Shown one piece after another: positions 1-51,255 of a stretch of DNA of 64,000 nt. The notes under the pieces were generated by a model, which was given only the letters and a program-made list of their open reading frames with translations, ran no database searches and was not told where the DNA came from. The position numbers and the translations under genes were made by a program. Numbering within the stretch: the first letter of the stretch is position 1; the number at the start of each line of letters is the position of its first letter. The DNA is from Alphaproteobacteria bacterium (GTDB taxonomy: Bacteria > Pseudomonadota > Alphaproteobacteria > MPNO01 > UBA830). The stretch covers positions 96,001-160,000 of the forward strand of contig OZ219790.1 in NCBI GenBank assembly GCA_964291215.2, read 5' to 3'.

Positions 1-771
1 TCTCGGATGGCCGGGTGTTGGGCCTGCTCCGGCAGATGCTCACGGCCAGCGTGGTGGCTGAAGGAAAAAGGCTGCCGGGGTACTCCACAGGGCGGTGTTG
101 TATCAGCGCTGCTCAGTAACATCTTGCTGACACCGTTTGATTGGGAAATGCGGCGGCTATCGATTGACTGCTGATGACTGGCTGGTGACGTGCGCGAGGA
201 AGCTCACGCGGCATTGGCCAGACGGATCCTGGCCAAGTGACCCTGAATGCCGGGAAGACCCGGACCGTTCACATCAGGCACGGGTTCGAGTTCCTCGGCT
301 ACAAGATCAAGCAGGGCAAGAAGCCACTCCGGTTGCACGCCTCGAAGATCAAGAGCGGGGTGAGCGGGAGGACACGCTATGCGGTTCCCCGTGCGAAATC
401 GATCCAGCACTTCAAGGACCAGATCCGCCAGCGCACCCGGCGCAAAGCTCCTGTCAGTACGCAGGAGTTGATCGATGAGATCAATCCAGTCATTCGGGGT
501 TGGGGCCAATACTACTGCAAGGCCCACATCCGCAAGCTCTTCCACCAGCTTGACGGCTGGATCGTTCGGCGGCTTTGGTCGCATCGTCGCAAGCGCTGGC
601 GCAACGCCGGCTGGAAACAGCTGCCGGAGCGCAAGCTGAGTACGGGCTTGTTCGCTTGTGGTCTCTTCCTTGAACCTTCGACGAGACACCTCTGTGAAAG
701 CGGCTTACGGGAAAGGGCCGTTTGAGCGGCGGACGGAGGCCAGCCCTTCGGGGCGCCTCCTCCGACCCGAC
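1..771 (+). mobile_element. Group II intron A, 3' part (decayed RT/maturase plus domains V-VI)
   Basis: Frameshifted RT motifs GTPQGGVVSALLSNILL, ADDWLV, FEFLGY and maturase domain X (INPVIRGWGQYY). DV-like GAAAGCGGCTTACGGGAAA..GGGCCGTTTGAGCGG at ~696-732, DVI hairpin ending CCGAC at 771. 5' end lies outside the window. Confidence 0.85.
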
Positions 772-1932
772 ACCGCTGAAGGCGGCGAACAAGGGCTCTC
801 CGGAGCCTGCGGAGTTGCTGGAGGGAAGGGCAATGCGGTTGGCCCGCGCCGCGCGCAGAAGCGGGTCACAGGCGGCTGAACGCAGGTAGCGAAGAGGAAC
901 CCGGAAGAGCGTCTTGTGGCGCTACTCCACCACGTGATGTTCTGCGTTCCATTCCTTGAGGAAGGATGCGGCGGCGGGGCGTTGTGTGGCAAACGTACGG
1001 GGTGGAACTGCCTGCACGCCCGTGTGCACAGGGGCGGGCGCCTCCGGGGTCTGCATTCCCAAGGAGGGGCAACTTGCCTCGGACAAGATTCTTCAGCGGG
1101 CGGTGTGATTCTGGTGCCGCGAAACGGAGTTCCTCGGTTCCGGCCGGGGCGCATCATGCGCCGTCACGGTGGAACGGCGGAAGGTCAACTGGATCGTTGA
1201 CGCCCGTGGGTTCTTCGACAACCGCGACCATCTGGTTGCGATGCTCGGGAAACGGATCGGGGGGTCTGATCATCAAGTGACCCCGGCGTCATGGAAGGGA
1301 CCGACTGGCAAGGGAACACCGCAAGGGGCGACGCCCTGCCTTGCGAACCTGCACTACGTGCGACTGGTTCCAGAACCACTGGCGCAAGCGGGACACGATC
1401 ATTATGCGGACGACTTCGTGTGCGGCTTTCAGAATCTGGGCGACGCTGGGACCTTGGGGAGAGACTGGCCCACTTGAACTGCACCCGGAAAATCATCGAG
1501 TTCGGTCGGTTTGCCAGAGCGAACCGCCGGAAGCGTGGACAAGACGTTCGACTTCCTCGGCATGACGCACTTCTGCGAACAGACGAGGAAAGGCAGGTTC
1601 AGGGTCGGTCGCAAACGGGCACCCTGCGGCGGATCAAGGAGGCCTTGCGCAAGCGGTGGCACGATAACCGGCACGAAACGGCCAAGTGGTGAGTTATCAA
1701 CGGCTGGCTCAACTACTACGTTGTTCCGGGAAGCAGCCTGCAGAAGTTCATACACCAATGCAAACGGCTGCGTGCCCTTCGGCGACGCCCCCAAAAAGAC
1801 TTCACCGGGGACACAGACACCCTCACCGCTGCCCACTGAGCCCGTGGCCAAACCAGCGCCTTGTCGTCAGGGGAGGAGCGAACAGCGCACGTCCGGTTCT
1901 GTGCGGGGGGTAACCCGGTTCCCTACCGCGAT
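772..1932 (+). mobile_element. Group II intron B, 3' part (decayed RT), interrupted by intron A
   Basis: 772-830 reads ACCGCTGAAGGCGGCGAAC...GCGGAG...TGGAGGGAAGGG (DII/DIII-like). Then fragments ERLVALLHHV, FRPGR, ERRKVNWIVDA-RGFFD, GTPQGA, YADDFVCGFQ, TFDFLGMTH in several frames. DV/DVI-like end GAGGAGCG..GCACGTCCGGTTCTGTGCGGGGGG..CCCTACCGCGAT at ~1873-1932. Confidence 0.8.
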
Positions 1933-3190
1933 GGTCGTCTGTGAAGCGCAGGTTTTCGTGTTTCACGAGACGTTCGTGCAGGTTGTGCGCGTTTGCGATG
2001 CGTTTTCCTTTCGCGGGATGTCGGGCAGTTCCCTGGCGCCCTGATGGTGCGGTTGCGGTCGGCCTCGTTCAGGGTCCTGGATGCGCTCTTGTTGATCTTG
2101 TGGCAAACCTCGCGGAGCAGGCTCTTCATCAGTCGCGCGGCAGCCTCGACGACGAAGGTCAGTTCGCGCAGCAGGTGGCTGCCGCTGGTGGCTACACTGC
2201 CATGTACGAGGCCCAGGACGCCCTTGTAGCACGGGCCGATCTCTTGCCCGCGCTTGCGATGTGGGAACTTGCACGTTCCGACGACATGGAGCCACTTGCT
2301 GTTGATCCGAAATCGTCGACATCGGGCGTTGCAGGAGGTGCGCCACGGCGGCCTCCTCCCATGACGCATCGTGAAAGCATGGCCGAGGCCTCGGAGAGCT
2401 TGATATCGCCTGCACGAGCGCGACGGCGCAGGGACAGAATTTGGGCGACCAGCAGGTTGATGACGAGGGCCTGGATGCCGTACTGCACGGGATGTTGTCG
2501 AGGAACCGGCCCTTGGTCCGGGCCTTGCACTTCGGGCATTCCTCGGCGTCGACGCGGCGCGACCTCGAACACGATGTCGTGCGGCGCTCGACGGGGCCGT
2601 CGGCGCCGCAGGCGTCGCAGGCCGCGACCGTTTCCTCGACGATGGTCTTGCGCAAGTTGTCGCCATCTGCTGGTTCGGCTTCGGGCCGTTGCTCCCGGCA
2701 CGCTCTCGTCCGTCTGTGACGGCGGCAGACCGGAGTTCCGGCTCGTGCGTGGCCTTCTCCAGAAGGACGACGATGAGGATGTCGAGCAGGATGACGAAGA
2801 CGCGGATCACGGCCTCTTCCGCCACCTTGCCGGCAGCGCCGCGGTCCTGGCCGCTTCGAACTCCTCGCGCGCCGCCCGTCGCCATCACCCGGCCTCGCCG
2901 CGAGCATCGCCTGACGCTCACCCGGCGGCATCTTCCGGTACTCCGCCTTGCGCTTCATCAGCGCGCCGCCTCCGAGATGCGTTTCCATATACAGATCATG
3001 CGGGGGCTGAAGCCCCGGAAGCAGCTGGCACAGCCCGCTCGTCGCCTTCGATCCAAAGTAGCCCACTGGCGGTCCCCATCGTTCTCGATTACCACCACTA
3101 AACGAATCGGCCTGCAGTGTCAAATCTCCACGAAAACCCGTTCGTTACTCTACCCCGACATCAAGCCGGAACCAAGGGGTGAGCAGTTAC
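1933..3190 (-). mobile_element. IS66-family element remnant with internally deleted DNA adenine methyltransferase
   Basis: Terminal GTAACTGCTC (reverse complement of 3181-3190). MTase fragments GYFGSKATSGLCQ..METHLGGGALMKRK joined to YRKMPPGERQAMLAA. TnpC fragments (CDACG, CPKC, VQYG, WLHVV, HRKRG, HNLHERLVKH) cut by intron B at 1932/1933. Confidence 0.8.
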
Positions 3191-3361
3191 ATGGAAACTA
3201 CGTTTAAGACTAGCAAATCGTCGCGGTTCGCCGCCGGGGTTCCCTAGTGTTGGACTCAGGGCAGCCACCCTTCCTCCAACTCGGCGATAATCCCCGGTAA
3301 TGTCGTCGTAAAGGTTCGTGCGCAAGTCGCCCTTGTGGGCTACGCGATGGTGTCTGGTCAT
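3191..3361 (-). pseudogene. ardC: ArdC-like antirestriction/ssDNA-binding protein, 5' stub
   Basis: Translates as RTNLYDDITG/IIAELEEGWLP*VQH*G, resembling the ArdC N-terminus (LYxEITxKIIAELEAGxxPWVQPWG). Truncated by the IS66 end. Confidence 0.65.
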
Positions 3362-3519
3362 CTGGATGATCTCGGCGACGGGCGCCTATCTTCCGGCCCT
3401 CAGCCCGTTACGGAAAACCCACCGCACTCTCAAGGGGAGCTGCGGGGTCTCCCTGCAGAAGGGGGTGCGCCGGCAAAGCAGTGCCGGCCAGGGAGAAGGC
3501 TTTCCCCCTCCAACTCCCG

Positions 3520-3801
3520 TCAGGGACGCCGGTGTTTCTGTATTTCCTCGTCGGCGATTGTCTGCACGATGTTCATGTCCATCTCCGCAACGGGTGAGAG
3601 ACGAGCGACCTCGGAAGCCACTTTTGTCCAATGCCAGAACCCGGACCTGTCCCTTTGGGCGCGGTTGCGCGCGGCAAGACGCTGCGCCTCATAATAGGCT
3701 TGGCGCCCATGTTTCTCGATCAACGTGCGCGCGTCCTGCTGCCATCGCTGGCGGATCTGCCGTCGTTTTCGATCCACTTGGAGAACAGGTCGAACATTCA
3801 A
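3520..3801 (-). CDS. Small hypothetical protein (93 aa)
   Basis: Open frame with plausible helical composition, co-oriented upstream of the ardC stub. No family recognised. Confidence 0.5.
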   Translation of the reverse strand: MNVRPVLQVDRKRRQIRQRWQQDARTLIEKHGRQAYYEAQRLAARNRAQRDRSGFWHWTKVASEVARLSPVAEMDMNIVQTIADEEIQKHRRP

Positions 3802-4172
3802 ACTCGCTTTCCGATGCCAAAATGACCGGACGGGATGGCGATCGCCAGGCAGGGGCTATTTCCCATGCGTGAACGGCTGCTTGAGTTCTGCCAGAACGAT
3901 GATGCCGACTTCAACAGCCCGCTTTGCGCTTTCCGGGACCGCTCTACCTGCACCAACAAAGCGTGAACGTGGCGCGACGGCGATTGTGCAACGATCTGCT
4001 GCACAATTTCTGGATTGCGGGGCGCCGGGGTCTCGGCTGATTGGCCGATGAAATTGGCCTCTCTGCTTCCACGGTCGTCCCGCACGATACCATCGTGTTC
4101 GATGATCGGCCCGACATCTTGAATTTTCCGGCCATTGGCCGTACATATGTTCGATAGATAGGAGATCGAAAA

Positions 4173-5807: not shown

Positions 5808-8800
5808 ATGCAATCGGGAATGGGCGACATTCCGGAAGACTACCCACTCCGGGTCAGGGACTTGCGTCAGCGGTTGGGGCTCACGCAGGCACAGATGGCG
5901 GAGCGCATCGGCGTGTCGTTCGCGACAGTGAACCGCTGGGAGAACAGCCAGTCCAGGCCCGGGCGCCTAGCGTGGCGCGGGATCGTCGATCTGGAAGCCG
6001 AGGTCCGGCACTCGAGCCGGCCGGCCGAACCGCCCGCCGCTTCGGCGGCGCCAACACTCGACTTTGGTGCTGAGCCGGCAGCGGTGGCCGCCGTTGCGGC
6101 GGCGACGCGGCTCGACTACGGCCACCTGTCCAACCCGACTTTCGCCAGCGAGATATCCTCGATCGACCCGTTGCCGCACCAGCGTATCGCCGTCTACGAA
6201 CACATGACCGGCCAGTCGCCGCTGCGGTTTCTCCTTGCCGACGATGCCGGTGCGGGAAAGACGATTATGACGGGGCTGTATATCCGCGAGATGCTCGTGC
6301 GCCGGCTGATGACCCGTGTGCTTGTTGCTGCGCCGGCCGGGCTGGTGGGCAACTGGGAACGCGAGATGCGCACGCTGTTCCGCCTCTCCTTCCGCATTGT
6401 GCGCGGCGCCGACGCCCGCGCCGGGAATCCGTTCGCCGGGCCGGAGAGCGACCGCATCGTCGTCAGCATCGACACGCTTGCCGGCGAGCGCATGTTCGGG
6501 CGCCTTCGCGAGGCGGTGGAATCGGGCGCCGCGCGACCCTACGACCTCGTGGTGTTTGATGAGGCTCACAAGCTGGCCGCCGCTCGCGAGCAGGATTTCC
6601 GAGTCCGCAAGACCGATCGCTACCGCCTCGCCGAAGCGCTGGCCGGCCTGCCCGTAGACTGTGCGCGCTGGAGCCTGGGCTGGTCGGCCTCGAATATCCT
6701 GCTGCTGACCGCGACGCCGCACATGGGCAAGGACTTCCCCTATTACTGCCTGTGGCGCCTGCTCGCGCCTGACGCGCTGTCGACTTTCGAGGCGTTCGAG
6801 GACTTCCCCGAGGCGTCGCGCCGCCGCCACTTCATCCGTCGCACCAAGGAAGAGATGGTTCACGCCGACGGTCGGCACCTCTATCCGCAACGTAAGTGCG
6901 ACACCCTCAGTTACGCGCTGAACCCGGCCGAGCAAGATCTCTATGACGCGACGACGCAATACATCAAGGAAACCTACAACAGGGCGCGCGTTCTGAACCG
7001 TTCCGCGGCCCGTCTTGCGATGAGCGTGTTCCAGCGCCGGCTCGCCAGTTCGACCTACGCCCTGATGCGCTCGTTCGAGCGCCGCCTCGACCGCCTGGAC
7101 AAGGCCATTGCGCTTGTCCGGGCGGGCCGCAGCGATGAGCTGAAGAGGGGCCAGACGCGGCTCGGGAAGACACCGGATTTCTTCGAATCCCGCACCGCCG
7201 ACGAGGAGGCGGACGACAGCGGCGAACGGGAGCGCCACGAGGAGTTCGAAGAGGCCGCGCTCGGCGGTTTCGCCTCGCTCACCCTTGTGGAGTTCCGGGA
7301 GGAGCGGGCAGAGGTCGAAGCCCTTCTGTCCCGGGCGCGCCGTCTCGCCGAAGCGGGCGAGGATTCCAAGTTCGAGAAGCTGCGTGCGGTCATGTGCGAT
7401 CCGGCCTTCGCCCGGGAAAAGCTCATCGTCTTCACCGAGCATCGAGACACGGCGGAGTTTCTGGTACGCCGCTTGGAAGAGCTCGGCTTCGCCGGTCGGG
7501 TCGGCCTGATCCATGGCGGGATGGATTACCACGCGCGCGAGGCGCAGGTAACGCTGTTCCGGCGTCCGGCGGAGCGCGGCGGCGCCAGCTATCTGGTCGC
7601 GACCGACGCCGCCGGCGAAGGCATCAATCTCCAGTTCTGTTGGCTTATGGTGAATTACGACGTGCCTTGGAACCCGGCGCGGCTGGAGCAAAGAATGGGG
7701 CGCATCCACCGCTACGGGCAAACGCACGACCCGGTGGTGATCGTCAACCTGGTCGCCGGGGAGACGCGCGAAGGCCGGGTTCTCAAGGTGCTGCTCGACA
7801 AGCTCGAGGCGATCCGCAAGGAACTCCGCTCGGACAAGGTGTTTGATGTCGTCGGGCACCTGTTCGAGAATCTGCCGCTCAAGGATTATCTGGAGCAGGC
7901 GGTGACGGAGGCCGGCGCCCGCACCGCTGTCGAGGCGTTCGATGCCAATCTGACGCCGGAACGAGCGGTCGCCATTGACGCGCGGGAGCGCGGCCTCTAC
8001 GGTAGCGGCGAGGTTCGCGCCCGCCTTTCCGAGCTCAACACGACCATGGAGCGGGAACAGTATCGCCGTCTGCTTCCTGGCCATGTCCGCCACTTCGTCG
8101 AGACCGCGGCCCCCTTGATCGACCTGCGACTGGAGGGCGACGCGGGCGGCGTATTCGACTTCGCGCCCCAACGCCCGCGCGCCGCCGACGATATGCGCGC
8201 CGCGATGGATGTCTACCCCGAAGCGATGCGAGGCCGGTTGACGTTCCAGCGTCCGGAAGCCGGCGACTACACTATCTGGATGCATCCCGGCGAGCCGGTG
8301 TTCGAGTGCTTTCACGCCGCCCTGCTGGCGCGCCGCGGCGGCGAGGCGCTGCGCGGCGCGATATTCGTCGATCCCCACGCCGAGGAACCCTACCTCTTTC
8401 ACCTGGCCCGGGTCTCGGTGGTGCGTCGCGGCCGAAACCGGACGGAGACGATCGAGATACGCCCGGTCGGGCTGCGGCAGGAGAGCGACGGCGCTGTTTC
8501 GCCGTGCCCGCCGGAGCATCTGCTTTTGTTGCGCGGCGTTGGCGGCGTCGCGCCCGGTAGCATACCGCTGGCCCGCGTGGCGCACAGGCTCACGGAAGAC
8601 GCCAGGGCGTCGCTGAAGGAGACTGCGCTGTGCATGGCGGCGAAACATCGCGCGCGCCTTGAGCAGGCGCTGCCGGAACTGCGCCGTTTGACCGCGCGCG
8701 GCTATGGCTACAAGACCGCCGAGTTGATGACGAGGCGTCGGAGCATGAGCGGGGAGGCCCGCCAGGGCAATTCGCAAGCGCAAGCGGAGCTCGCCATCGT

Positions 8801-9374
8801 GAAGGAAGAGCAGAGCCGCCTGGTCGCGGAGCAGCGCTGCCGTCTGGCGGCGCTGGAGGCGAAGCCTGCTTCGATTGGCCCCGGCGAGGCAGCGATGATT
8901 GCCCATGCACTGGTCCTGCCGACCAGCGACCCGGAAGAGCGGCAGCGGCACGACGCCGAAGTCGAGACGATCGCCATGGTCCGTGCGCGCGCCCATGAGG
9001 AAGCGGCGGGGGCCTCGGTTCAAGACGTGTCGCGGCCCGCGCTGGCGCGACGCGCGGGCCTGGGCGACTGGCCCGGCTTCGACCTTCGTTCGCTGCGCCC
9101 GGCGGGAGCGGGCGGGCCGGCGGAGGACCGCGCCATTGAGGTCAAGGGCCGCGCCGGTTCCGGCGCGGTGGAAGTGAGCGAAAACGAATGGGCGGCGGCC
9201 TGCAACCTGCGCGAGCGCTACTGGCTCTATGTCGTCTTCGACTGCGCCGGGTTGCGTCCCCGCCTGGTCAAGATCCGCGACCCCTTCGGTTGTCTGCTGG
9301 CCCGGACGAAAGGCGGAGTCGTCATTTCGGCGTCGGAAATCTTGTCGGCAAGCAGGGACGAGGGGGCGGCATGA
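5808..9374 (+). CDS. XRE-HTH / SNF2-family helicase / DUF3883 fusion
   Basis: N-terminal HTH (LRQRLGLTQAQMAERIGVSFATVNRWEN); LLADDAGAGKT, DEAH, LLTATPH, GEGINLQ, WNPARLEQRMGRIHRYGQ; C-terminal GFDLRS...IEVKGR...SENEW (DUF3883). Start may be 5820. Confidence 0.93.
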   Translation: MQSGMGDIPEDYPLRVRDLRQRLGLTQAQMAERIGVSFATVNRWENSQSRPGRLAWRGIVDLEAEVRHSSRPAEPPAASAAPTLDFGAEPAAVAAVAAATRLDYGHLSNPTFASEISSIDPLPHQRIAVYEHMTGQSPLRFLLADDAGAGKTIMTGLYIREMLVRRLMTRVLVAAPAGLVGNWEREMRTLFRLSFRIVRGADARAGNPFAGPESDRIVVSIDTLAGERMFGRLREAVESGAARPYDLVVFDEAHKLAAAREQDFRVRKTDRYRLAEALAGLPVDCARWSLGWSASNILLLTATPHMGKDFPYYCLWRLLAPDALSTFEAFEDFPEASRRRHFIRRTKEEMVHADGRHLYPQRKCDTLSYALNPAEQDLYDATTQYIKETYNRARVLNRSAARLAMSVFQRRLASSTYALMRSFERRLDRLDKAIALVRAGRSDELKRGQTRLGKTPDFFESRTADEEADDSGERERHEEFEEAALGGFASLTLVEFREERAEVEALLSRARRLAEAGEDSKFEKLRAVMCDPAFAREKLIVFTEHRDTAEFLVRRLEELGFAGRVGLIHGGMDYHAREAQVTLFRRPAERGGASYLVATDAAGEGINLQFCWLMVNYDVPWNPARLEQRMGRIHRYGQTHDPVVIVNLVAGETREGRVLKVLLDKLEAIRKELRSDKVFDVVGHLFENLPLKDYLEQAVTEAGARTAVEAFDANLTPERAVAIDARERGLYGSGEVRARLSELNTTMEREQYRRLLPGHVRHFVETAAPLIDLRLEGDAGGVFDFAPQRPRAADDMRAAMDVYPEAMRGRLTFQRPEAGDYTIWMHPGEPVFECFHAALLARRGGEALRGAIFVDPHAEEPYLFHLARVSVVRRGRNRTETIEIRPVGLRQESDGAVSPCPPEHLLLLRGVGGVAPGSIPLARVAHRLTEDARASLKETALCMAAKHRARLEQALPELRRLTARGYGYKTAELMTRRRSMSGEARQGNSQAQAELAIVKEEQSRLVAEQRCRLAALEAKPASIGPGEAAMIAHALVLPTSDPEERQRHDAEVETIAMVRARAHEEAAGASVQDVSRPALARRAGLGDWPGFDLRSLRPAGAGGPAEDRAIEVKGRAGSGAVEVSENEWAAACNLRERYWLYVVFDCAGLRPRLVKIRDPFGCLLARTKGGVVISASEILSASRDEGAA

Positions 9375-39674: not shown

Positions 39675-40801
39675 AGTTAAATGGTAGCCTCATTGCGCCC
39701 ATAGGTGAAGACACCGTCATCGTCCACGGACCACGTGAAGTGCTTCGCCATCTTGTACCTGCCGATGACCTTGCCGACCCGTTCCCCGATCTTCAAGGCC
39801 CCCTCGAGGCGGCGCTTGTCGCGCCGGGTCGCCGCGGCAATCGGTTCGAGCAGGGCCTCGGTGGCCTCGAGCAGTTCCTGGCGCTTGCGAGCCCGATCTT
39901 CGGCCAGCAGCGGGTTGCGGCACACCATGAGGCGTTCGCCGGGATACGCATTGCTGGTGATCTCCACCAGGTCTCTCTCGTCGAAGAGCGACATCTCGAC
40001 GTCGCCGGCCTCCACCAGTGAACGGATGGCCGGAAGGCGCTGATCCAGTCCAGACCTGCAGGCTTGACCTCCTCGCGGATGCGCGCCTCGGCCCCCCGGT
40101 CCCCCACCAGTACCACCTTCGCAAAGGAGAACCGCTCCCGCAGCGTGGCGATCTGTGAGGACACCGTGGCCGGGTGTTGCCGGGGAACACCGACACCGGA
40201 CACCCGTCCCGGTCGCACAGAAGGCCAAACTCGATCTGCAGCTTGCCCTTCTTGCCATCCCGGGAATGACCCCGTTTGGCCAGGGGACACCCCTCCATCC
40301 ACACCGAAGTCAGGAGCACCAAGCAGCCCTCTTCGAGGTGCCGCTTTGCCAGGGACCGCTCGATCCTCTCCTGACGCTCCAAGAGCCAGGCGCCGTAGAG
40401 GGCGTCCTCGTCCAGCTCCGCATCGAGGATCTCGCCCAGGGTGCTGACCGCTGTGGCCTCGGCCAGCCCCTGTGCCGTGGCCAGCTTCGAGGCGGGCTCG
40501 AGGATGCGTGCCGCGATCATGGCCAGGACCTGATCGCGCTCATGCGAGGGCTTCGGGTCGATCAGCCTGTCGAGACCGATCTTCTTCAGGGTTCCCAGCA
40601 CTGCGGCCACATGCCCATGGGGAAGGGAGCGGACGATGTCGAAGGCGTCGTTGAGATGTCGGACTGCGGTTCCTCCCTTGAGGAGGATGCGCAATCCCTC
40701 GACGAGAGCGGGGGACCACTTGGTGAGGTTGGCGATGGTGCGCTTCTTGACCTTTCCGTCTTCGCGATAGGACTCGCGGAGCAGGATGGCGCCGCGCGGG
40801 C
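39675..40801 (-). mobile_element. IS1634-family transposase remnant
   Basis: AILLRESYREDGKVKKRTIANL, SLPHGHV, RGHSRDGKKG, YPGERL.VCRNPLL, KMAKHF; truncated at both ends. Confidence 0.85.
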
Positions 40802-42095
40802 GGTACTGTAACTTGATGTCTGGAAATTTGTCTGAGGTTTGCGCTTTGAGGCGTTTCACTGGGGGGCTAGCCCCCCAGTGAAACGCGGCGCCATCGTGCT
40901 ATCCCATGGAGCTGTAAACATTCATGGAGGAAGCGAATGGAGCTGCGACACACTACGACGATTGAGGCCGTTTTGGAACATCTGATCGCAAACGGAGCAA
41001 CGGATCTGGGGCGGGTCTTTGGCCAGCTCTTCGAGCTTGCGATGCAAATCGAGCGTGAGCAGTACTTGAAAGCGGGCCACCGGACACCGGAGCGACAGGG
41101 CTATGCCAACGGCTACAAGCGGATCGACACCCCCCTGTTGCCGTTCAGGTGCCAAAGACGGCCGGTCACGGGGACAACCCGTTCTATCCCCAGTCGCTTG
41201 AACGCGGCCAGCGATCTTCTCGCGCCGTCATGCTGGCCGTAGCCGAGATGTACATCAAGGGTGTTTCCACGCGGCAAGATGTAATGCGCGAGTTCGGGAG
41301 CCTGTCCTCTTCTCAGGTCAGCCGGGCCACCAGGTTGCTCGATGAAGAACTCGCCGCCTGGCGCAACCGGCCCCTTGAGCTGATGAAATACCTGATCCTG
41401 GATGCGCGCTACGAAAAAGCCCGCCATGACGGCGTTGTGCGCGATGTTGCAGTGCTCTCGGCCATCGGAATAGGGGCCGACGAGCGCAGGCACGTTCTGG
41501 GGCTCTCTGTGGCGCTCTCCGAGGCCGAGGTCCATTGGAGAGCCTTCCTGGAAAGCTTGCTAGCCCGTGGCCTGCATGGTACGACCTTCATCGTCTCGGA
41601 TGACCATGCTGGGCTGAAAGCAGCACGACGCGCGGTGCTGGGCGCGGCGACATGGCAGCGCTGCCAGTTCCACTTGGCGCAAAACGCCGTGCAGCACGCA
41701 CCGAACAACGACATCAGGAAACGTATTGGAAAACAGCTCGGAGCCATGCGTCCTCACTCCAAACCGCCGAGGCTGAACTGGGCGCCCTCGTGGCCAGCTA
41801 TCGCGACAAGCATCCAAGCTTCGCAGACTGGCTGGAAAACAATGCGGGGCTCGCTGTCTTCACCTTGCCCGATGCTCACCACAAACGTATGCGAACCTCG
41901 AACGGCATCGAGCTCCAGCAAGAGCTCAAGCGGCGCACCTCCAAAGTCAGGGTCTTTCCGAACCTCGCCTCGTTGGAGCGCCTCTCAACCGCGGTCCTCA
42001 TCGACGAAAAATGGGAAACCGAAACCAAGATCAAATGGGAACAGCTCGATGACTGAGAGCTTCACGACAATTTCCAGACATCAGGTTGCGTAATC
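40802..42095 (+). mobile_element. IS256-family copy C, frameshifted, no matching TSD
   Basis: Both IRs present; flanks differ (IS1634 remnant on left, Fic-like tail on right), implying adjacent deletion or recombination. Confidence 0.92.
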
Positions 42096-44383: not shown

Positions 44384-45631
44384 CTGCATTTTCTTACTTG
44401 GATATAAGGACTTTCTGTATTTCGGTATTGTCAGCTATTTGTAAGCGTTCGTTCATGCGGTGATAACGATCTGCGCTGAGGTTTTTTTGGTGATTGCAAA
44501 AAGGGAGTTAATAATTCGTGGACGCCCGGAAAAGTACATTTATTTAACTCCAATACCTAAATCGTGGTATGGGTGAGGCGAAGAATCCCGCTTTGGGGCG
44601 GGAAGTTGCTTACGACTGCGCCCTTAAACTTGGATGCATCTCTTGCCGTGCGACAGGCGGCGCTGCTAGATAAGTGCGACAAGCTCAGACATCAGAGCCA
44701 GCCAGACTGAAGGAGACGACCATTGCCGAGAAGCCGAAGCGGTCCGCGGGGCCGTCCTGTAGAGAAGCTACTGTCGGAGCCAATTGACGCCGCGCCGGAG
44801 GTGCCCTCGCGATCATGCAGCGCAAGCCGAAGGATGATTACGCCATGAATATCACTCGGCGGCGGAGCTTTTGGGATGTTCTCCTTGAAAAGCTGTTCAT
44901 CGCCCTTTTCGACGAAGGGATAAAAAATCCCGATGGATCCGTCGGCCGTTGGGTTATAAGAGTGATGGTCGCTTTGTTCAGTTTGTTTGTCGTCGTTGTC
45001 GTTTGTCTGCTCGGTTTCCTTGCCGTCATTCTCATTAAGGATTACGCAACCTGATGTCTGGAAATTGTCGTGAAGCTGATCGAGCTGTTCCCATTTGATC
45101 TTGGTTTCGGTTTCCCATTTTTCGTCGATGAGGACCGCGGTTGAGAGGCGCTCCAACGAGGCGAGGTTTGGAAAGACCCTGACTTTGGAGGTGCGCCGCT
45201 TGAGCTCTTGCTGGATCGGTCGCTCGATGCCGTTTGAGGTTCGCATACGCTTGCGGTGAGCATCGGGCAAGGTGAAGACAGCAAGCCCCGCATTCTTTTC
45301 CAGCCAGGAAGCCTGGATGCTTGTCGCTGGCCACGAGGGCGCCCAGTTCAGCCTCGGCGGTTTGGAGTGAGGAGGCATGGCTCCGAGCTGTTTTCCAATA
45401 CGTTTCCTGATGTCGTTGTTCGGTGCACGGCGTTTTGCGCCAAGTGGAACTGGCAGCGCTGCCACATCGCCGCGCCCAGCACCGCGCGTCGTGCTGCTTT
45501 CAGCCCAGCATGGTCATCCGAGACGATGAAGGTCGGTAACTGCCCAGGTCTGCTTCCGGCGATCAGCCACGGGTTATGGACTGAATCTTCCGGTCTGCTG
45601 CCGCGGACGCGGAGGCGAGCGGCGGGGGATT

Positions 45632-46970
45632 TCAGAGGCGCAGTCTCGGGATCAGCTGCATGGGATCGGGATGCGCCAGGGTTTCGAGGACATTCCAGCG
45701 TTGCTTTCGGGCTGTTGCGATGACGGAACGCAGGCTGGCGAAGTCGCGGGCGCCTTGCATTGATCGGAAGCCGCCCGAGATTTTCTGGCGCAGCTTGCCC
45801 ATGCGGAGGTCGCGCTCGGCCTGGTTGTTCGAGAAGGGGGTTCTCGGGTCGGTGAGGAAGCGCAGGCAGCCCTCCTTGTATTTCTGGAGCCGGAGGGCGA
45901 GGTTGTGACCGATGCGGCGCTTTTGTCGTCCGTGCTTTCCGCTCTGGAGGGGCGCCATCTCTTCGTGAGAGGCGATGGCCTGCTCAAGGATGCGGTCCCA
46001 GGCTCGGGAGATGCGGGCCACCAGTGAAGCGGGCAGGTCGCGGTCATTCTTGCGGGCGAAGCGGGCGGCTCTGTTGGCACGGCTGAGGAGCGGGTGCGTG
46101 GTGGCTGCCCAGTTCTCGATCTCGATCAGGGCTTGGAGTTCGCGCAGGTGATGGGCATTGCAGGCCCCGTGGCGCACGCCTTGGAGAGCGAAGTAGGTGG
46201 CGTAGTCGTCATGGATGACGATGCCGTTGAGCTTCTCGTCGATGTGGCTGCGCCCGGCGGCGATGCGCAGGATGGTCAGCAACGGGGTGCACAGTACGTG
46301 GAGCCATTGGGTCCGGGCGGCGATGCGGATGCCGGTCTCGTCGAGGTGTTTGACCGGGGCCGCGGTGCGGATGATCTCGCCGACACGGTCGAGGAAGCCC
46401 TCGAAGCGCCGGGCGGTGCGTCTGCCCATGGCGGCGATGGTGGCGGTTGAGAGCCTGACCGCGAAGAGGTCGCTCATGACTTCGGCGACGCGCTTCTCCG
46501 GAATGAACTGCGCGTGCAGCAGGTAGGTCACCCACGCGGTGATACGCGGCCCGTACTGGACCGGGGCGCCGTTCGGGAAGACGGCTGTCGTCACGGTGCC
46601 GCAGGCGGCACAGAGGCAGCGGTGCTCGGTGACCTCAAGGGGCTGCGGCACATCGAAGACCTGCCGGCAGACGGGGGCTCGGTGACGCTCAGCGGCCGAC
46701 AGCGGCGCGCCGCAGCCCGCACAGGCGCAGGGATCATGATCGACGATGTGGTCGGGCGTCGCGGTCCGCTCCAGAGTGGTTCCCTTGTGGCTGGCCGCCG
46801 CCTGTCGGACGTGCCGCTCCGGGTGCGCTGGGGTCCGCCCGCTCGCGCAAGTGGGCGTTCTCCCGCTCCAGCGCGTCGTTCTCCCTGACCAGCGCCGCGC
46901 TCAGGCGCAGCAGCCCCTGGCCCGGATGGCTTTGATGACCGTCATCGCCAGGCATTGTGGGGTGAAAAGG
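45632..46970 (-). pseudogene. IS66 TnpC transposase, 5' part frameshifted
   Basis: VQYGP, HLDETG, WLHV, CNAHHLREL, FSNNQAERDLRM.K.RQKISGGFRS; open only 45632-46651. 5' limit approximate. Confidence 0.88.
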
Positions 46971-47023
46971 TCCTGCAGGCACGCAAAAGCCTCGTCGTGG
47001 CCGGCGAGGTCCTCGCGCCACCG

Positions 47024-47683
47024 TCACGGGACCTCGACGGCCATGATCGCGGCCAGCACCGCCAGGCGTTCGCCCGCCGGCATGGCCTCGTAGAGCCGGC
47101 CCCAGTTGGCCGCCTTGCGCTTGATGCGCTGGCGGTCGGTGAAGTTCCGGCCGGCGAAGCGCGCCCAGTGCACCCGGTCGGGCGCGAAGTTGAACCACAC
47201 CACCTCGGTCCGCACCCGGGCCTGGGTCGTCACCTGCAGCGCCAGCCGGCGCCAGCCCGACAGCAGGTCGTCATAGAGCGCAGACGGGTGGCCCGAGACC
47301 ATCACCTGGCAGGGCAGACCCTTGAGCAGCTCAAGCAGCGCGACGTGGTCGGCCTCCGCATACTCGAAGCGGTAGCGCTGCGACGAACGCCGGGTCGCGT
47401 GCAGATAGGGCGGATCGCTGTAGACCAGCTCCGGGCCCAGAAACGCAAACGACGCCAGAAAGGAGTGGGCGCAGCCATGCACCAACTCCACCGGGTAGTC
47501 GCAGCCAAAGGCCTCAAGCGCCCGCTCATCGAGGTCGATCCCGATCGAGCGCACGGCAGCAGGCTTGCGCTTCATCAGCGCACCGCCCCCCAGGTGACTC
47601 TCGATATAGACAGAGTGCGGCGGCATCAGCGCAATCAGCGCCTGGCTCAGACCCGTCGTCGCCTTCGATCCGAAATACCCCAC
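47024..47683 (-). CDS. Dam-like (D12 class) DNA adenine methyltransferase
   Basis: GTG start with GGGAGGA RBS; YFGSK, ESHLGGG (motif I variant), GIDLD, YSDPPY (motif IV), VMVSG, RTEVVWFN; uninterrupted frame. Confidence 0.88.
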   Translation of the reverse strand: MGYFGSKATTGLSQALIALMPPHSVYIESHLGGGALMKRKPAAVRSIGIDLDERALEAFGCDYPVELVHGCAHSFLASFAFLGPELVYSDPPYLHATRRSSQRYRFEYAEADHVALLELLKGLPCQVMVSGHPSALYDDLLSGWRRLALQVTTQARVRTEVVWFNFAPDRVHWARFAGRNFTDRQRIKRKAANWGRLYEAMPAGERLAVLAAIMAVEVP

Positions 47684-48437
47684 CAGCCGCTCCTCCCATG
47701 CGAGAGGGCAACCCATAGGCGCGCGCGCCTATGCAGTCAAGGCCGAGAGCAGCGACACGGCGAACAAAATCAGCAAGCTCTCACACTTGGCAGGGTACCT
47801 GGGTAGTTACGAAGGTCGTACCATGCAGGGCTAGTAAGCTTTCCAGGAAGGCTCTCCAAATGGACCAGAGAGCCCCAGAACGTGCCTGCAGCCCCTATTC
47901 CGATGGCCGAGAGCACTGCGACATCGCGCACAACGCCGTCATGGCGGGCTTTTTCGTAGCGCGCATCCAGGATGTTGCGCCAGCTGGTGGCCCGGCTGAC
48001 CTGAGAAGAGGACAGGCTCCCGAACTCGCGCATTACATCCTGCCGCGTGGAAACACCCTTGATGTACATCTCGGCTACGGCGCGAGAAGATCGCTGGCCG
48101 CGTTCAAGCGACTGGGGATAGAACGGGTCGTCCCCGTGACCGGCCGTCTTTGGCACCTGAACGGTAACAGTGGGGGTGTCCGATCCGCTTGTAGCCGTTG
48201 GCATAGACCTGTCGCTCCGGTGTCCGGTGGCCCGCTTTCAAGTACTGCTCGCGCTCGATTTGCATCGCAAGCTCGAAGAGCTGGCCAAAGACCCGCCCCA
48301 GATCCGTTGCTCCGTTTGCGATCAGATGTTCCAAAACAGTCCCGATACATCAAGTTACAGTACCCCCCCCCCCCCCCCCGCCAGCGATCGTGCAGACGCT
48401 GCTTGATGCAGGCGCACGGCTCGACGCGCGGACTAAA

Positions 48438-51255
48438 CCGAAGTTCCAGATCCGATCAGACGTAAGTGCCTGATAGAAGTGACATTCGATACATTTCAGC
48501 GGTCTCGGTACACTATGGCTTCACGCCCAGGAGCTTGAATGCCCTTCTCTGGAGCGGCGTGGGCCATGTGGTGACCTGGAAGGGCTCGGCGCCCGCAAGG
48601 CGGGGCGCCACGGTGTTGCGGGTGGCAAGATCGCCGATGAGGGTGCGGAAGCTGTGCCCCCTCCGGGCGTCCTCTTCGTTGTCGCCTTGGCCCGGGCGCT
48701 CGCCGAGACTTCTGCCGGCGCCACGACGGAAGACCGCCTTCGGCATCCTCGTCGTCGAACAGCATGGGCTTCAGTCGCATGTGCCATGTAGTAGGCGAGC
48801 ATGCACAGGAAGACGCGGACTCGGGGTTCGGGTAGACGGGACGGACCTTCAGGTCCTTGAGGCTGCGGAAGGCCCGTTCCACGGAGCTCAGCCGCTTGTA
48901 GGCGCGCGGGACCGTCGAGCTCGCTCTGCGGCAGGCGGACCACGTAGAGGAGCCTCGGCGGCGATGGCAGCCTCATCACGCCCATAGGTGAAGACACCGT
49001 CATCGTCGATGGACCACGTGAAGTGCTTCGCCATCCTGCCGATGACCTTCCGCTCCCCGATCTTCCCGGCACCCTTGAGGCGACGCTTGTCGCGTCGCTG
49101 CGGCAATCGGTGCGAGCCTCGGTGGCCTCGAGCAGTTCCTGGCGCTTGCGGGCCCGATCCAGCAGCGGGTTGCGGCAGAGGCGTTCGCCGGGATACGCAT
49201 CGCTGGTGATCTCCACCAGGTCTCTCTCGTCGAAGAGCGACATCGTCGCCGGCCTCCACCAGTGAACGGATGCCCCTCAAGGCGCTGGCCCGCAGGCTTG
49301 ACCTCCTCGCGGGCCTCGGTCCCCCACCACCTTCGCAAAGGAGAACCGCTCCCGCAGCGTGGCGATCTGTGAGGACACCGTGGCCGGGTGTTGCCGGGGA
49401 ACACCCGCACCGACACCCGTCCCGGTCGCACAGAAGGCCGACTGCAGCTTGCCCTTCTTGCCATCCCGGGAATGACCCCGTTGGGCCAAGGGGCATGCTC
49501 TCCCCTCCATCCACACGGAAGTCAGGAGCACCAGGCAGCCCTCTTCGAGGTGCCGCCAGGGGATCCTCTCCTGACGTTCCAGGAGCCGTAGAGGGCATTC
49601 TCGTCCAACTCCGCATCTCACCCAAGGTGCTGACCGCTGTCGCCAGCCCCCTGGCCAGCTTCGAGGCGGGCTCAAGGATGCGTGCCACGATCATGGCGAG
49701 AACCTGATCGCGCTCGGGAGAAGGCTTCGGGTCGATCCGCCGGTCCAGTTTCTTCAGGGTTTCCAGCACCGCGGCGACATGGGGAAGAGAGCGGACGAGG
49801 CGTCGTTGAGACCTGCGGTTCCTCCCTTGAGCAGAATGCGCAATTCCTCGATGGAGAGCGGTACTGTAACTTGATGTCTGGAAATTTGTCTGAGGTTTGC
49901 GCTTTAAGGCGTTTCACTGGGGGGCTAGCCCCCCAGTGAAACGCGGCGCCATCGTGCTATCCCATGGAGTTGCAAAACATTCATGGAGGAAGCGAATGGA
50001 CCTGCGACACACTACGACGATCGGGACTGTTTTGGAACATCTGATCGCAAACGGAGCAACGGATCTGGGGCGGGTCTTTGGCCAGCTCTTCGAGCTTGCG
50101 ATGCAAATCGAGCGCGAGCAGTACTTGAAAGCGGGCCACCGGATACCGGAGCGACAGGGCTATGCCAACGGCTACAAGCGGATCGACACCCCCACTGTTA
50201 CCGTTCAGGTGCCAAACGGTCACGGGGACGACCCCCCAGTCGCTTGAACGCGGCCAGCGATCTTCTCGCGCCGTGGCCGTAGCCGAGATGTACATCAAGG
50301 GTGTTTCCACGCGGCAAGCCGATCCTCTTCTCAGGTCAGCCGGGCCACCAGGACGGCGTTGTGCGCGATGTTGCAGTGCTCTCGGCCATCGGAATAGGGG
50401 CTGCAGGCACGTTCTGGGGCTCTCTGTGGCGCTCTCCGAGGCCGAGGTCCATTAGAGAGCCTTCCTGGAAAGCTTGCTAGCCCTGCATGGTACGACCTTC
50501 ATCGTCTCGGATGACCATGCCGGGTTGAAAGCGGCACGACGCGCGGTGCTGGGCGCGGCGACATGGCAGCGCTACCAATTCCACCTGGCGCAAAACGCCG
50601 TGCACCGAACAACGACATCAGGAAACGTATTGGAAAACAGCTCGGAGCCATGCGTCATCACTCCAAACCGCCGAGGCCGAACTGGGCGCCCTCGTGGCCA
50701 GCGACAAGCATCCAGGCTTCCTGGATGGAAAAGAATGCGGGGCTCGCTGTCTTCACCTTGCCCGATGCTCACCGCAAGCGCATGCGAACCTCGAACGGCA
50801 TCGAGCGACCGATCCAGCAAGAACTCAAGCGGCGCACCTCCAAAATCAGGGTCTTTCCGAACCTCGCCTCGTTGGAGCGCCTCTCAACCGCGGTCCTCAT
50901 CGACGAAAAATGGGAAACCGAAACCAAGATCAAATGGGAACAGCTCGATGACTGAGAGCTTCACGACAATTTCCAGACATCAGGTTGCGTAATCATGAGA
51001 GCGGGCTTGGAAAGGTTGGCGAGGGTGCGCTTCTTGACCGTTCCGGCTTCGCGGCAGGACTCGCGGAGCAGGATGGCGGGCGGGGACGAGCGGTTGGGGA
51101 TGGATTCGATATACATGGCTATAGGCGGCAAATCCATGGATGTCAAGCATCTAACACAATATTACATGGGTACAATCTGACGCACGAAAAATCCGATAAC
51201 CACGCTGCATCAATGACTTGGCGTGCATTTCAACCGGAATTTTCTGGAACTTCGG
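48438..51255 (-). mobile_element. IS1634-family element (decayed), split by IS256 copy E
   Basis: IRs CCGAAGTTCCAGA / TCTGGAACTTCGG; 6-bp TSD ACTAAA (48432-48437, 51256-51261); N-terminus MYIESIPNRSSPPAILLRES, C-terminus ERAFRSLK...LQRRAFKLLGV. Confidence 0.9.
49860..50994 (+). mobile_element. IS256-family copy E (heavily deleted)
   Basis: Both IRs; near-perfect TSD ATGGAGAGC / ATGAGAGC. Confidence 0.9.

Follow-up and report, generated by a model that had tools for sequence, protein, structure and literature searches.

An insertion sequence (IS) of the IS66 family, here called family A, lies on the minus strand at positions 45536..47810 of a 64,000-nucleotide stretch of an alphaproteobacterial genome (contig OZ219790.1; the whole stretch is referred to as the window). 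Upstream of its single transposase gene, tnpC, the element carries a gene whose product has a Dam-type methylase fold and is related to Upf31, a protein of IncP-1beta plasmids. Our analysis suggests that this Upf31-type protein is a portable autorepressor, which would bind a 20-bp site in its promoter and limit the expression of both itself and the transposase, a reading to which we give a probability of about 0.62. The Upf31-like gene and the overlapping tnpC would be expressed as a single transcript, and the protein would bind the two half-sites, probably as a dimer, blocking the promoter and repressing its own gene together with the coupled transposase. Repression would operate in cis and in trans across all copies sharing the site; an element new to a genome would at first transpose in a burst and then throttle itself as its copy number rises. 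Among the roles that the original prediction had proposed for the gene, tuning of transposition is the one that describes it best.

Relationship of the IS-borne gene to upf31

The gene at 47024..47683 (minus strand) encodes a protein of 219 amino acids (aa) that shares 43% identity with pBP136 Upf31 over 221 aligned residues, covering the whole length including the C-terminal helical domain. The plasmid matches comprised 196 records, all below 60% identity, one of which was pBP136 with its gene upf31. According to the accessible text of Elg et al. (2025; PMC11997246), Upf31 lowers the output of its own promoter about 50-fold, the activity of a reporter with a 68-bp fragment dropping from 4.76 to 0.09 units with the full-length hybrid, and the substitutions Y180A, F185A and W198A in the C-terminal helices abolish repression. 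These three residues align with F176, F181 and W194 of the window protein.

A predicted sigma70-type promoter precedes the IS-borne gene at 47712..47740 (minus strand), where TTGACT (47740-47735) and TATGGG (47717-47712) are separated by 17 bp; the family consensus is TTGACA-17-TATGCT. The predicted operator, CATAG-N10-CTATG (47714..47733), lies between the -35 and -10 boxes and overlaps the latter. To describe the family we used 80 metagenomic loci which, like the other locus sets in this work, were the best-scoring ones and are therefore biased to the near clade. After setting aside 3 loci that were too short, 7 without a TTGA(C/G) box and 2 duplicates, 68 unique promoters gave the consensus TTGACA-N-CATAG-N10-CTATG-CT, while the upf31 reporter promoter reads TTGACA-G-CATCG-N10-CGATG-CT (PMC11997246, accessible text). 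At the level of sequence, therefore, the IS and upf31 promoters share their layout, and the half-sites differ by one symmetric base change (CATAG/CTATG in the IS, CATCG/CGATG for Upf31).

The spacing of the half-sites was conserved. TAG-N10-CTA was found upstream of the gene in 65 of the 73 metagenomic loci with enough sequence, compared to 15 out of 1548 background windows, while a looser pattern with spacers of 8, 9, 11 or 12 occurred in only 4-8 of the 73, near the 7-9% background. The left half-site falls within the promoter spacer, outside the promoter consensus, and the inner 10 bp are free. One symmetric pair of the operator covaries (G-C in 7/8, A-C in 9/59; Fisher p 9e-5 for sequences that are not independent). 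The window copy of the site forms a perfect 20-bp palindrome, which proved incidental, as complementarity of the inner 10 bp is not shared by the family as a whole. Of the 43 loci for which an end pair was called, 37 had the core site once, 1 had it twice and 5 lacked it, some of the end calls being spurious; in these loci no operator was found at the element ends, the one site per element being at the promoter. In the genome holding the window (6.15 Mb searched for copies and sites), the full site occurred 13 times, 12 of them in family A copies. The 3.7 kb of pBP136 examined contained 7 near-matches to CATCG-N10-CGATG, in two clusters.

A Dam-type fold without the target-recognition domain

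The Upf31-like gene is likely to start at the GTG at 47683 rather than at the ATG at 47716, because in an intact relative of the element (L035) the frame from the upstream ATG meets a stop and because a ribosome-binding site, GGAGGAG (47690..47696, minus strand), precedes the GTG. The protein presents the ExHLGGG and DPPY (residues 90-93) motifs of a Dam-type catalytic fold, followed by a C-terminal two-helix domain. It had originally been described as Dam-like; the DPPY motif and a weak match to TIGR00571 agree with that description, but the scores lie below the family cut-offs (24.8 versus 114.85 for TIGR00571, E 1.6e-5; 14.1 versus 22 for PF02086, E 0.04) and no target-recognition domain is present. 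A profile of 101 homologues aligned with DpnM and E. coli Dam over two separate stretches, skipping the part in between, residues 62-81 of the window protein spanning about 73-183 of DpnM. We take this skipped stretch to be the location of the target-recognition domain. The domain, which lies between motifs III and IV in Dam-family GATC methylases, is missing from the Upf31-like protein.

The predicted structure (predicted local distance difference test, pLDDT, 86.6) shows a methyltransferase fold and two C-terminal helices, and a Foldseek search with it returned E. coli Dam first, with a template modelling (TM) score of about 0.5 and RNA methylases close behind. The S-adenosylmethionine-binding motif I and the DPPY motif IV are present in alpha order. 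The motif X lysine K7 was found in 99 of the 101 homologues, the motif I residues E28, G32 and G34 in 100, 101 and 98, DPPY in 98 and DPP in 101, counts that are affected by the fact that the homologue searches selected partly on catalytic motifs. In the C-terminal domain, G178 and R184 were present in 101/101 homologues and W194 in 93/101. Among seven close elements, the ratio of nonsynonymous to synonymous substitution rates (dN/dS) was 0.14-0.26 for the Upf31-like gene and 0.15-0.35 for tnpC; the former is under purifying selection like the latter. The protein family comprises 3761 matches, some of them labelled 'DNA adenine methylase'.

Family A is a recently multiplied IS66 element

The element is bounded by 14-bp inverted repeats that begin with GTAA and are identical at 13 out of 14 positions, the left one, GTAACTACCCAGGT, at 47797..47810 (minus strand) and the right one, GTAACTGCCCAGGT, at 45536..45549 (plus strand). 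An exact 8-bp target-site duplication, GAAGGTCG, flanks it at 45528..45535 beside the right end and at 47811..47818 beside the left end (plus strand). The insertion interrupts a decayed IS256-family copy, which it splits between 45040 and 48364 (minus strand; right boundary approximate). We found 12 family A copies with both ends in the genome, 11 of them with an 8-bp duplication. All of these duplications differ and only 0-16 substitutions separate the copies, which therefore result from a recent expansion. With a TnpC-type DDE transposase (PF03050/NF033517), GTAA-type ends and an 8-bp duplication, family A is a genuine, recently multiplied IS66 insertion sequence. Its usual length is 2354-2357 bp, the window copy being 82 bp shorter than the 2357-bp form. 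The Upf31-like gene is disrupted in two of the 12 copies, by a 55-bp deletion in one and a 1330-bp insertion in the other.

The exact ends and duplication, together with the 12 copies, bear out the earlier statement that a methylase-like open reading frame (ORF) lies inside the element, upstream of tnpC and in the same orientation. It had also been noted that no nuclease accompanies the gene, and indeed none was seen within the element; in most related loci the downstream ORF is a transposase. In contrast, the idea that the methylase-like gene stands in place of tnpA and tnpB had to be abandoned. No tnpA or tnpB ORF exists within the element (the 5 PF05717 matches in the genome are all elsewhere), and its single transposase ORF and GTAACT-type ends fit the ISBst12 group as defined in the accessible text of PMC12898284. 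Nothing needed replacing, because single-ORF IS66 elements already form this group.

Promoter, site and gene appear to move as one cassette

The gene proved to be integral to IS66 elements, as originally proposed. Among the 80 metagenomic loci, 69 had at least 300 bp of downstream sequence and 55 of these were followed by an IS66 tnpC, which amounts to 55 of the 63 homologues with at least 58% identity. Below 58% identity, none of the 6 metagenomic loci and none of the 59 viral loci were linked to IS66. The eight unlinked close loci included two with IS66-type N-terminal Pfam matches, one with an IS4 transposase, one located before a glycosylase gene, two without promoter and two that were not resolved. 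On genome contigs, 78 of 80 loci were linked to IS66, many of these copies coming from few genomes. The Upf31-like family is uncommon, with matches in 2 out of 400 other genomes of the phylum, both at about 45%.

The transposases of 41 gene pairs fell into six groups, five of IS66 (20-37% alike) and one of IS4, the latter with no detectable similarity to IS66, while the first genes remained 62-75% alike (medians) between transposase groups. In a midpoint-rooted tree, for which no formal test was made, the family A clade nested among genes paired with another transposase group (support 97/90), and the loci L173 and L175 grouped together across transposase groups on a branch of four (100/99). 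The likeness of the first genes across divergent transposases and the mixing in the tree therefore indicate, at the sequence level, that promoter, site and gene travel as one cassette between IS66 lineages and into an IS4 element. The latter (L152:88-2415) belongs to the IS4 family, is bounded by perfect inverted repeats of 16 bp with a 9-bp duplication, and has promoter, site and gene ahead of its transposase.

The cassette was also observed outside IS elements. At L131:4001-5527, cassette and operator are directly upstream of an 8-oxoguanine glycosylase-like gene, without a transposase. In seven viral contigs (L195, L197, L203, L206, L214, L219 and L225), the Upf31-like gene lies just 3' of the replication A gene of a P2-like prophage; a link to Mu-like phages was rejected, since the gene upstream is of P2 type in all seven inspected loci. 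The looser site pattern was found upstream in 16 of the 59 viral loci against a background of 11%, and some P2-like prophage homologues are preceded by CATAG-N10-CT(A/G)TG sites in tandem arrays of two to four. The Upf31-like cassette may regulate a P2-like phage locus.

The transposase gene is frameshifted in all family A copies

The original prediction regarded the methylase-like gene as the only clearly full-length one in its surroundings. However, tnpC is not wholly decayed, since its catalytic core (45632..46651, minus strand) is an open frame of 339 aa that matches PF03050 (E 1.4e-38) and reaches 235.7 bits with NF033517, above the cut-off of 180. The 5' part (46734..47027, minus strand), whose GTG start overlaps the upstream stop (GTGA), is frameshifted in 12/12 copies by small shared deletions, and the window copy carries in addition a private 82-bp deletion at 46838/46839. 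Relatives with an intact tnpC exist. In L035 (2456 bp, 88% alike), the first gene has 222 aa from its GTG and TnpC has 513 aa, its GTG start overlapping the stop of the first gene by 4 bp; this TnpC scores 283 bits in the test for TnpC-type transposases. No full-length IS66 transposase frame was found in the genome holding the window, where stop-to-stop frames cover at most residues 94-513 of the 513-aa TnpC, and no obvious slippery site was seen by eye. The family A copies of this genome, with their broken transposases, probably owe their movement to a transposase provided in trans. The absence of an intact helper may be accounted for by its loss or by a working truncated or frameshifted TnpC product.

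A sequence-quality artefact was ruled out as the cause of the broken tnpC. The deletions are present in 12/12 copies, and contigs of the sequencing runs X1 and X2, which belong to the same study but to different samples (one of them may be the source), also carry them, several being crossed without gaps. The 82-bp deletion was not seen in the X1 or X2 contigs and could be real or an assembly error. Contigs from the RNA run X23, from a relative and mostly less than 95% alike, cover the element; because contigs give neither strand nor level, they are no evidence of expression.

The lineage of this genome accumulated 11 private deletions of 5-28 bp, compared to 0-4 in each of six relatives. The 651-bp core of the first gene was free of them (p about 0.03 if uniform), nine falling in tnpC, one at the junction of the two genes and one upstream. 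Since the tnpC core likewise has just one deletion after position 1330, this bias is weak evidence for retention of the first gene. The earlier suggestion that the gene was retained after transposase decay thus gains a little from the 0/11 count, but two of the 12 family A copies are disrupted and most copies of a second family, described below, have lost the gene.

Small deletions of 5-14 bp are numerous in the IS copies of this genome in general (families A and B; the IS256 and IS1634 copies at 39717-42095 and 48496-51150), with microhomology slightly above chance (mean 2.0 versus 0.84 bp, n=13). Ordinary genes, mazG and groEL among them, are intact.

A second IS66 family with a truncated gene

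A second, divergent example had been reported at 1933-3190. It does correspond to an IS66 element with a methylase-like gene, but only about 40 codons of that gene remain, and position 1933 is not an element end. The stretch 1933..3190 (minus strand) contains the first 1280 bp of a copy of family B, interrupted by a foreign insert at 1932/1933, with the rest of the copy outside the window. Family B represents another IS66 lineage. Its first gene, where full-length, shares 74% identity with that of L035, while its transposase remnants are about 30% alike. The genome contains 221 left ends and 179 right ends of family B, or about 200 copies, compared to 12 left ends of family A. Among 114 end pairs within 2.6 kb (median 1524 bp), 80 showed an 8-bp duplication. 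A gene match was obtained at 181 left ends; it spans fewer than 80 residues in 166 of them and at least 200 in 4. In at least 67 of the 114 short paired copies, codon 41 has been fused by a deletion to the native stop, the one overlapping the start of tnpC. This pattern is consistent with the loss of a brake. Nevertheless, copy number is confounded by age, so that family B remains an anecdote in this respect.

The insert in family B belongs to an element of about 1.1 kb (window 800-1932) with about 60 copies in the genome, 43 junctions being at one site inside family B. Positions 237-722 encode a maturase domain of group II introns (PF08388) and the end of the insert looks intron-like by eye, while an Rfam search of window positions 1-4000 gave no match; the insert could represent a degenerate intron that homes into the IS, or may have been carried along with it. 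In addition, a 1640-bp region at G000:C2:342895 and similar ones have about 90 bp of the family B left end at both ends, inverted and with an 8-bp duplication. These derivatives are composites of two left ends with a captured short neighbouring ORF.

Alternative explanations

Several observations weigh against repression by the Upf31-type protein. The proposed mechanism is deduced from one tested homologue, the plasmid-borne Upf31, and the accessible text of PMC11997246 shows repression by Upf31 rather than direct DNA binding. Position 176, one of those aligned with the repression-critical residues, is variable (Y, H, F or C). Since the -10 box and the right half-site overlap, the conservation of the latter can partly be explained without any protein. 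A pure repressor could dispense with the catalytic motif, yet this motif is conserved to the same degree as the C-terminal helices. Family B, in turn, has a degenerate site even in copies with a full-length gene (TGCAG-N10-TTAGT) and is older, with a median identity of 92% between copies and transposases that are now also broken.

The conserved catalytic residues (K7, motif I and DPPY) would be explained if the protein were an active methylase of very narrow specificity whose target is its own operator, the methylated base being the -11 adenine (base 2 of the -10 box). We consider this possible, although clearly less probable than repression by binding. The promoter would be shut off by methylation and become accessible again for a short time upon replication, the switch being encoded by the element; host Dam acts likewise on IS10. 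Positions 10 and 25 of the site, a symmetric pair, read T-A in 65 of the 68 promoters, which would place an adenine on each strand, although A25 is expected from the -10 consensus alone. In the accessible text of PMC11997246, Upf31 gave no GATC methylation in a restriction test and neither signal nor detectable motif by SMRT (single-molecule real-time) sequencing in a methylase-free strain. The strain used contained the expression vector alone and lacked pBP136 and its sites; default settings were used for motif finding (PMC11997246, same text). By calculation, about 4 occurrences of a 10-base site are expected in 4.6 Mb, and so rare a target could have been missed. On the other hand, repression was lost through C-terminal mutations, and no catalytic mutant was found reported in that text (PMC11997246). 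An extended version, which we hold to be slightly more doubtful still, describes a self-contained epigenetic timer. A methylase-fold dimer would bind the 5-N10-5 site and methylate the -11 adenine, which would confine transposase synthesis to entry into a new host and to the time right after replication. The module would be portable across IS66, IS4, IncP-1beta plasmids and P2-like prophages, its loss releasing runaway amplification as in family B.

The original prediction also considered methylation that shields the element from restriction or alters the host methylome. A broad adenine methylase of this kind would agree with the Dam-family fold (the Foldseek hit and the profile matches to DpnM and Dam) and with the presence of homologues in P2-like prophages and conjugative plasmids, common homes of anti-restriction methylases. 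However, the target-recognition region is absent, Upf31 methylated neither GATC nor any detectable motif (PMC11997246, accessible text), the candidate site occurs just 13 times in the genome and a separate methylase gene lies upstream in several inspected prophages (L197, L203, L219 and L225). An IS moving inside a cell would also gain little from a shield, and we regard this function as improbable. A role as accessory factor that acts on the transposase protein through the C-terminal helices, comparable to that of TnpA/TnpB, appears even less probable. The overlap with the tnpC start does suggest co-production, and contact between Upf31 and KorB is predicted through the C-terminal domain (PMC11997246, accessible text), but the cassette pairs with transposases that are 20-37% alike and with an unrelated IS4 transposase. 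Such movement between dissimilar transposases disfavours a specific contact, and single-ORF IS66 elements transpose without accessory genes (PMC12898284, accessible text). Finally, neutral cargo captured once from a plasmid or prophage is the least probable account, given the low dN/dS, the conserved site and spacing and the repeated pairing with different transposases, even though homologues below 58% identity are not linked to IS66 (0/6 metagenomic, 0/59 viral) and family B multiplied without the gene.

Other features of the window

A 79-aa ORF with a hydrophobic C-terminal stretch at 44815-45054 adjoins the end of the IS256-family copy and had no convincing family match. The 5' leader of IS256-family copies contains a perfect 36-bp palindrome (40851-40886 and 49909-49944). 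At 5808-9374, the window encodes an 1188-aa protein with helix-turn-helix, SNF2 helicase and NOV_C (PF13020) domains, a combination often seen in defence loci.

Comparison with known systems

No description of an IS66 element carrying a Upf31-like gene was found in literature searches, with subscription papers, ISfinder and REBASE outside their scope. New here are an operator layout that resembles the upf31 promoter base for base, the mapping of repression-critical residues, the rarity of the site and a deletion family of about 200 copies in the same genome. If true, self-control of IS elements would here take a new form, that of a dedicated methylase-fold repressor acting through a defined 20-bp site, in a family whose transposition mechanism is poorly characterised (PMC12898284, accessible text). 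The so far unexplained repeats of IncP-1beta plasmids would gain the precise form CATCG-N10-CGATG, and CATAG-N10-CTATG would constitute a natural specificity variant for locating the DNA-reading residues. Thousands of family proteins, some annotated as DNA adenine methylases, may be regulators.

The dampening of transposase expression at the element's own promoter has precedents. IS10 and IS50 achieve it via host Dam and GATC sites, and IS1 encodes its own repressor, InsA, a helix-turn-helix-type part of the transposase. The proposed family A regulator would share the damping at the element's own promoter, but differs in being a separate methylase-fold protein with its own site. Dam and DpnM (alpha group, D12 class) have the same catalytic fold and motif order, X-I-II...IV (DPPY), whereas the Upf31-like protein lacks the target-recognition domain, has extra C-terminal helices and scores below the Pfam and NCBIfam cut-offs; any methylation by it is putative. 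Family A shares with the ISBst12 group, single-ORF IS66 elements without tnpA/tnpB such as ISDge4, the single TnpC-type transposase, the GTAACT-type ends (GTAACTGCTCAGCA in ISDge4) and the 8-bp duplication (PMC12898284, accessible text). ISDge4 encodes only a 449-aa transposase (PMC12898284, same text), while the cassette-bearing elements add the upstream gene and its promoter and reach about 2.3-2.5 kb. Transporter IS (tIS; PMC9330008, accessible text) likewise hold an extra gene between their ends, but the family A gene appears to be wired into transposase expression rather than to be a passenger. A tested counterpart is Upf31 itself (upf31.0; pBP136 and R751; Elg et al. 2025, PMC11997246, accessible text), with which the IS-borne protein has in common the catalytic motifs, the C-terminal helical domain and the promoter layout. 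That study searched plasmids only, and no mention of insertion sequences was found in its main text (PMC11997246). Upf31 is encoded in the backbone of plasmids, where the sites lie in clusters, and it influences the KorB circuit, whereas family A usually has one site per element and its gene overlaps the start of the transposase.

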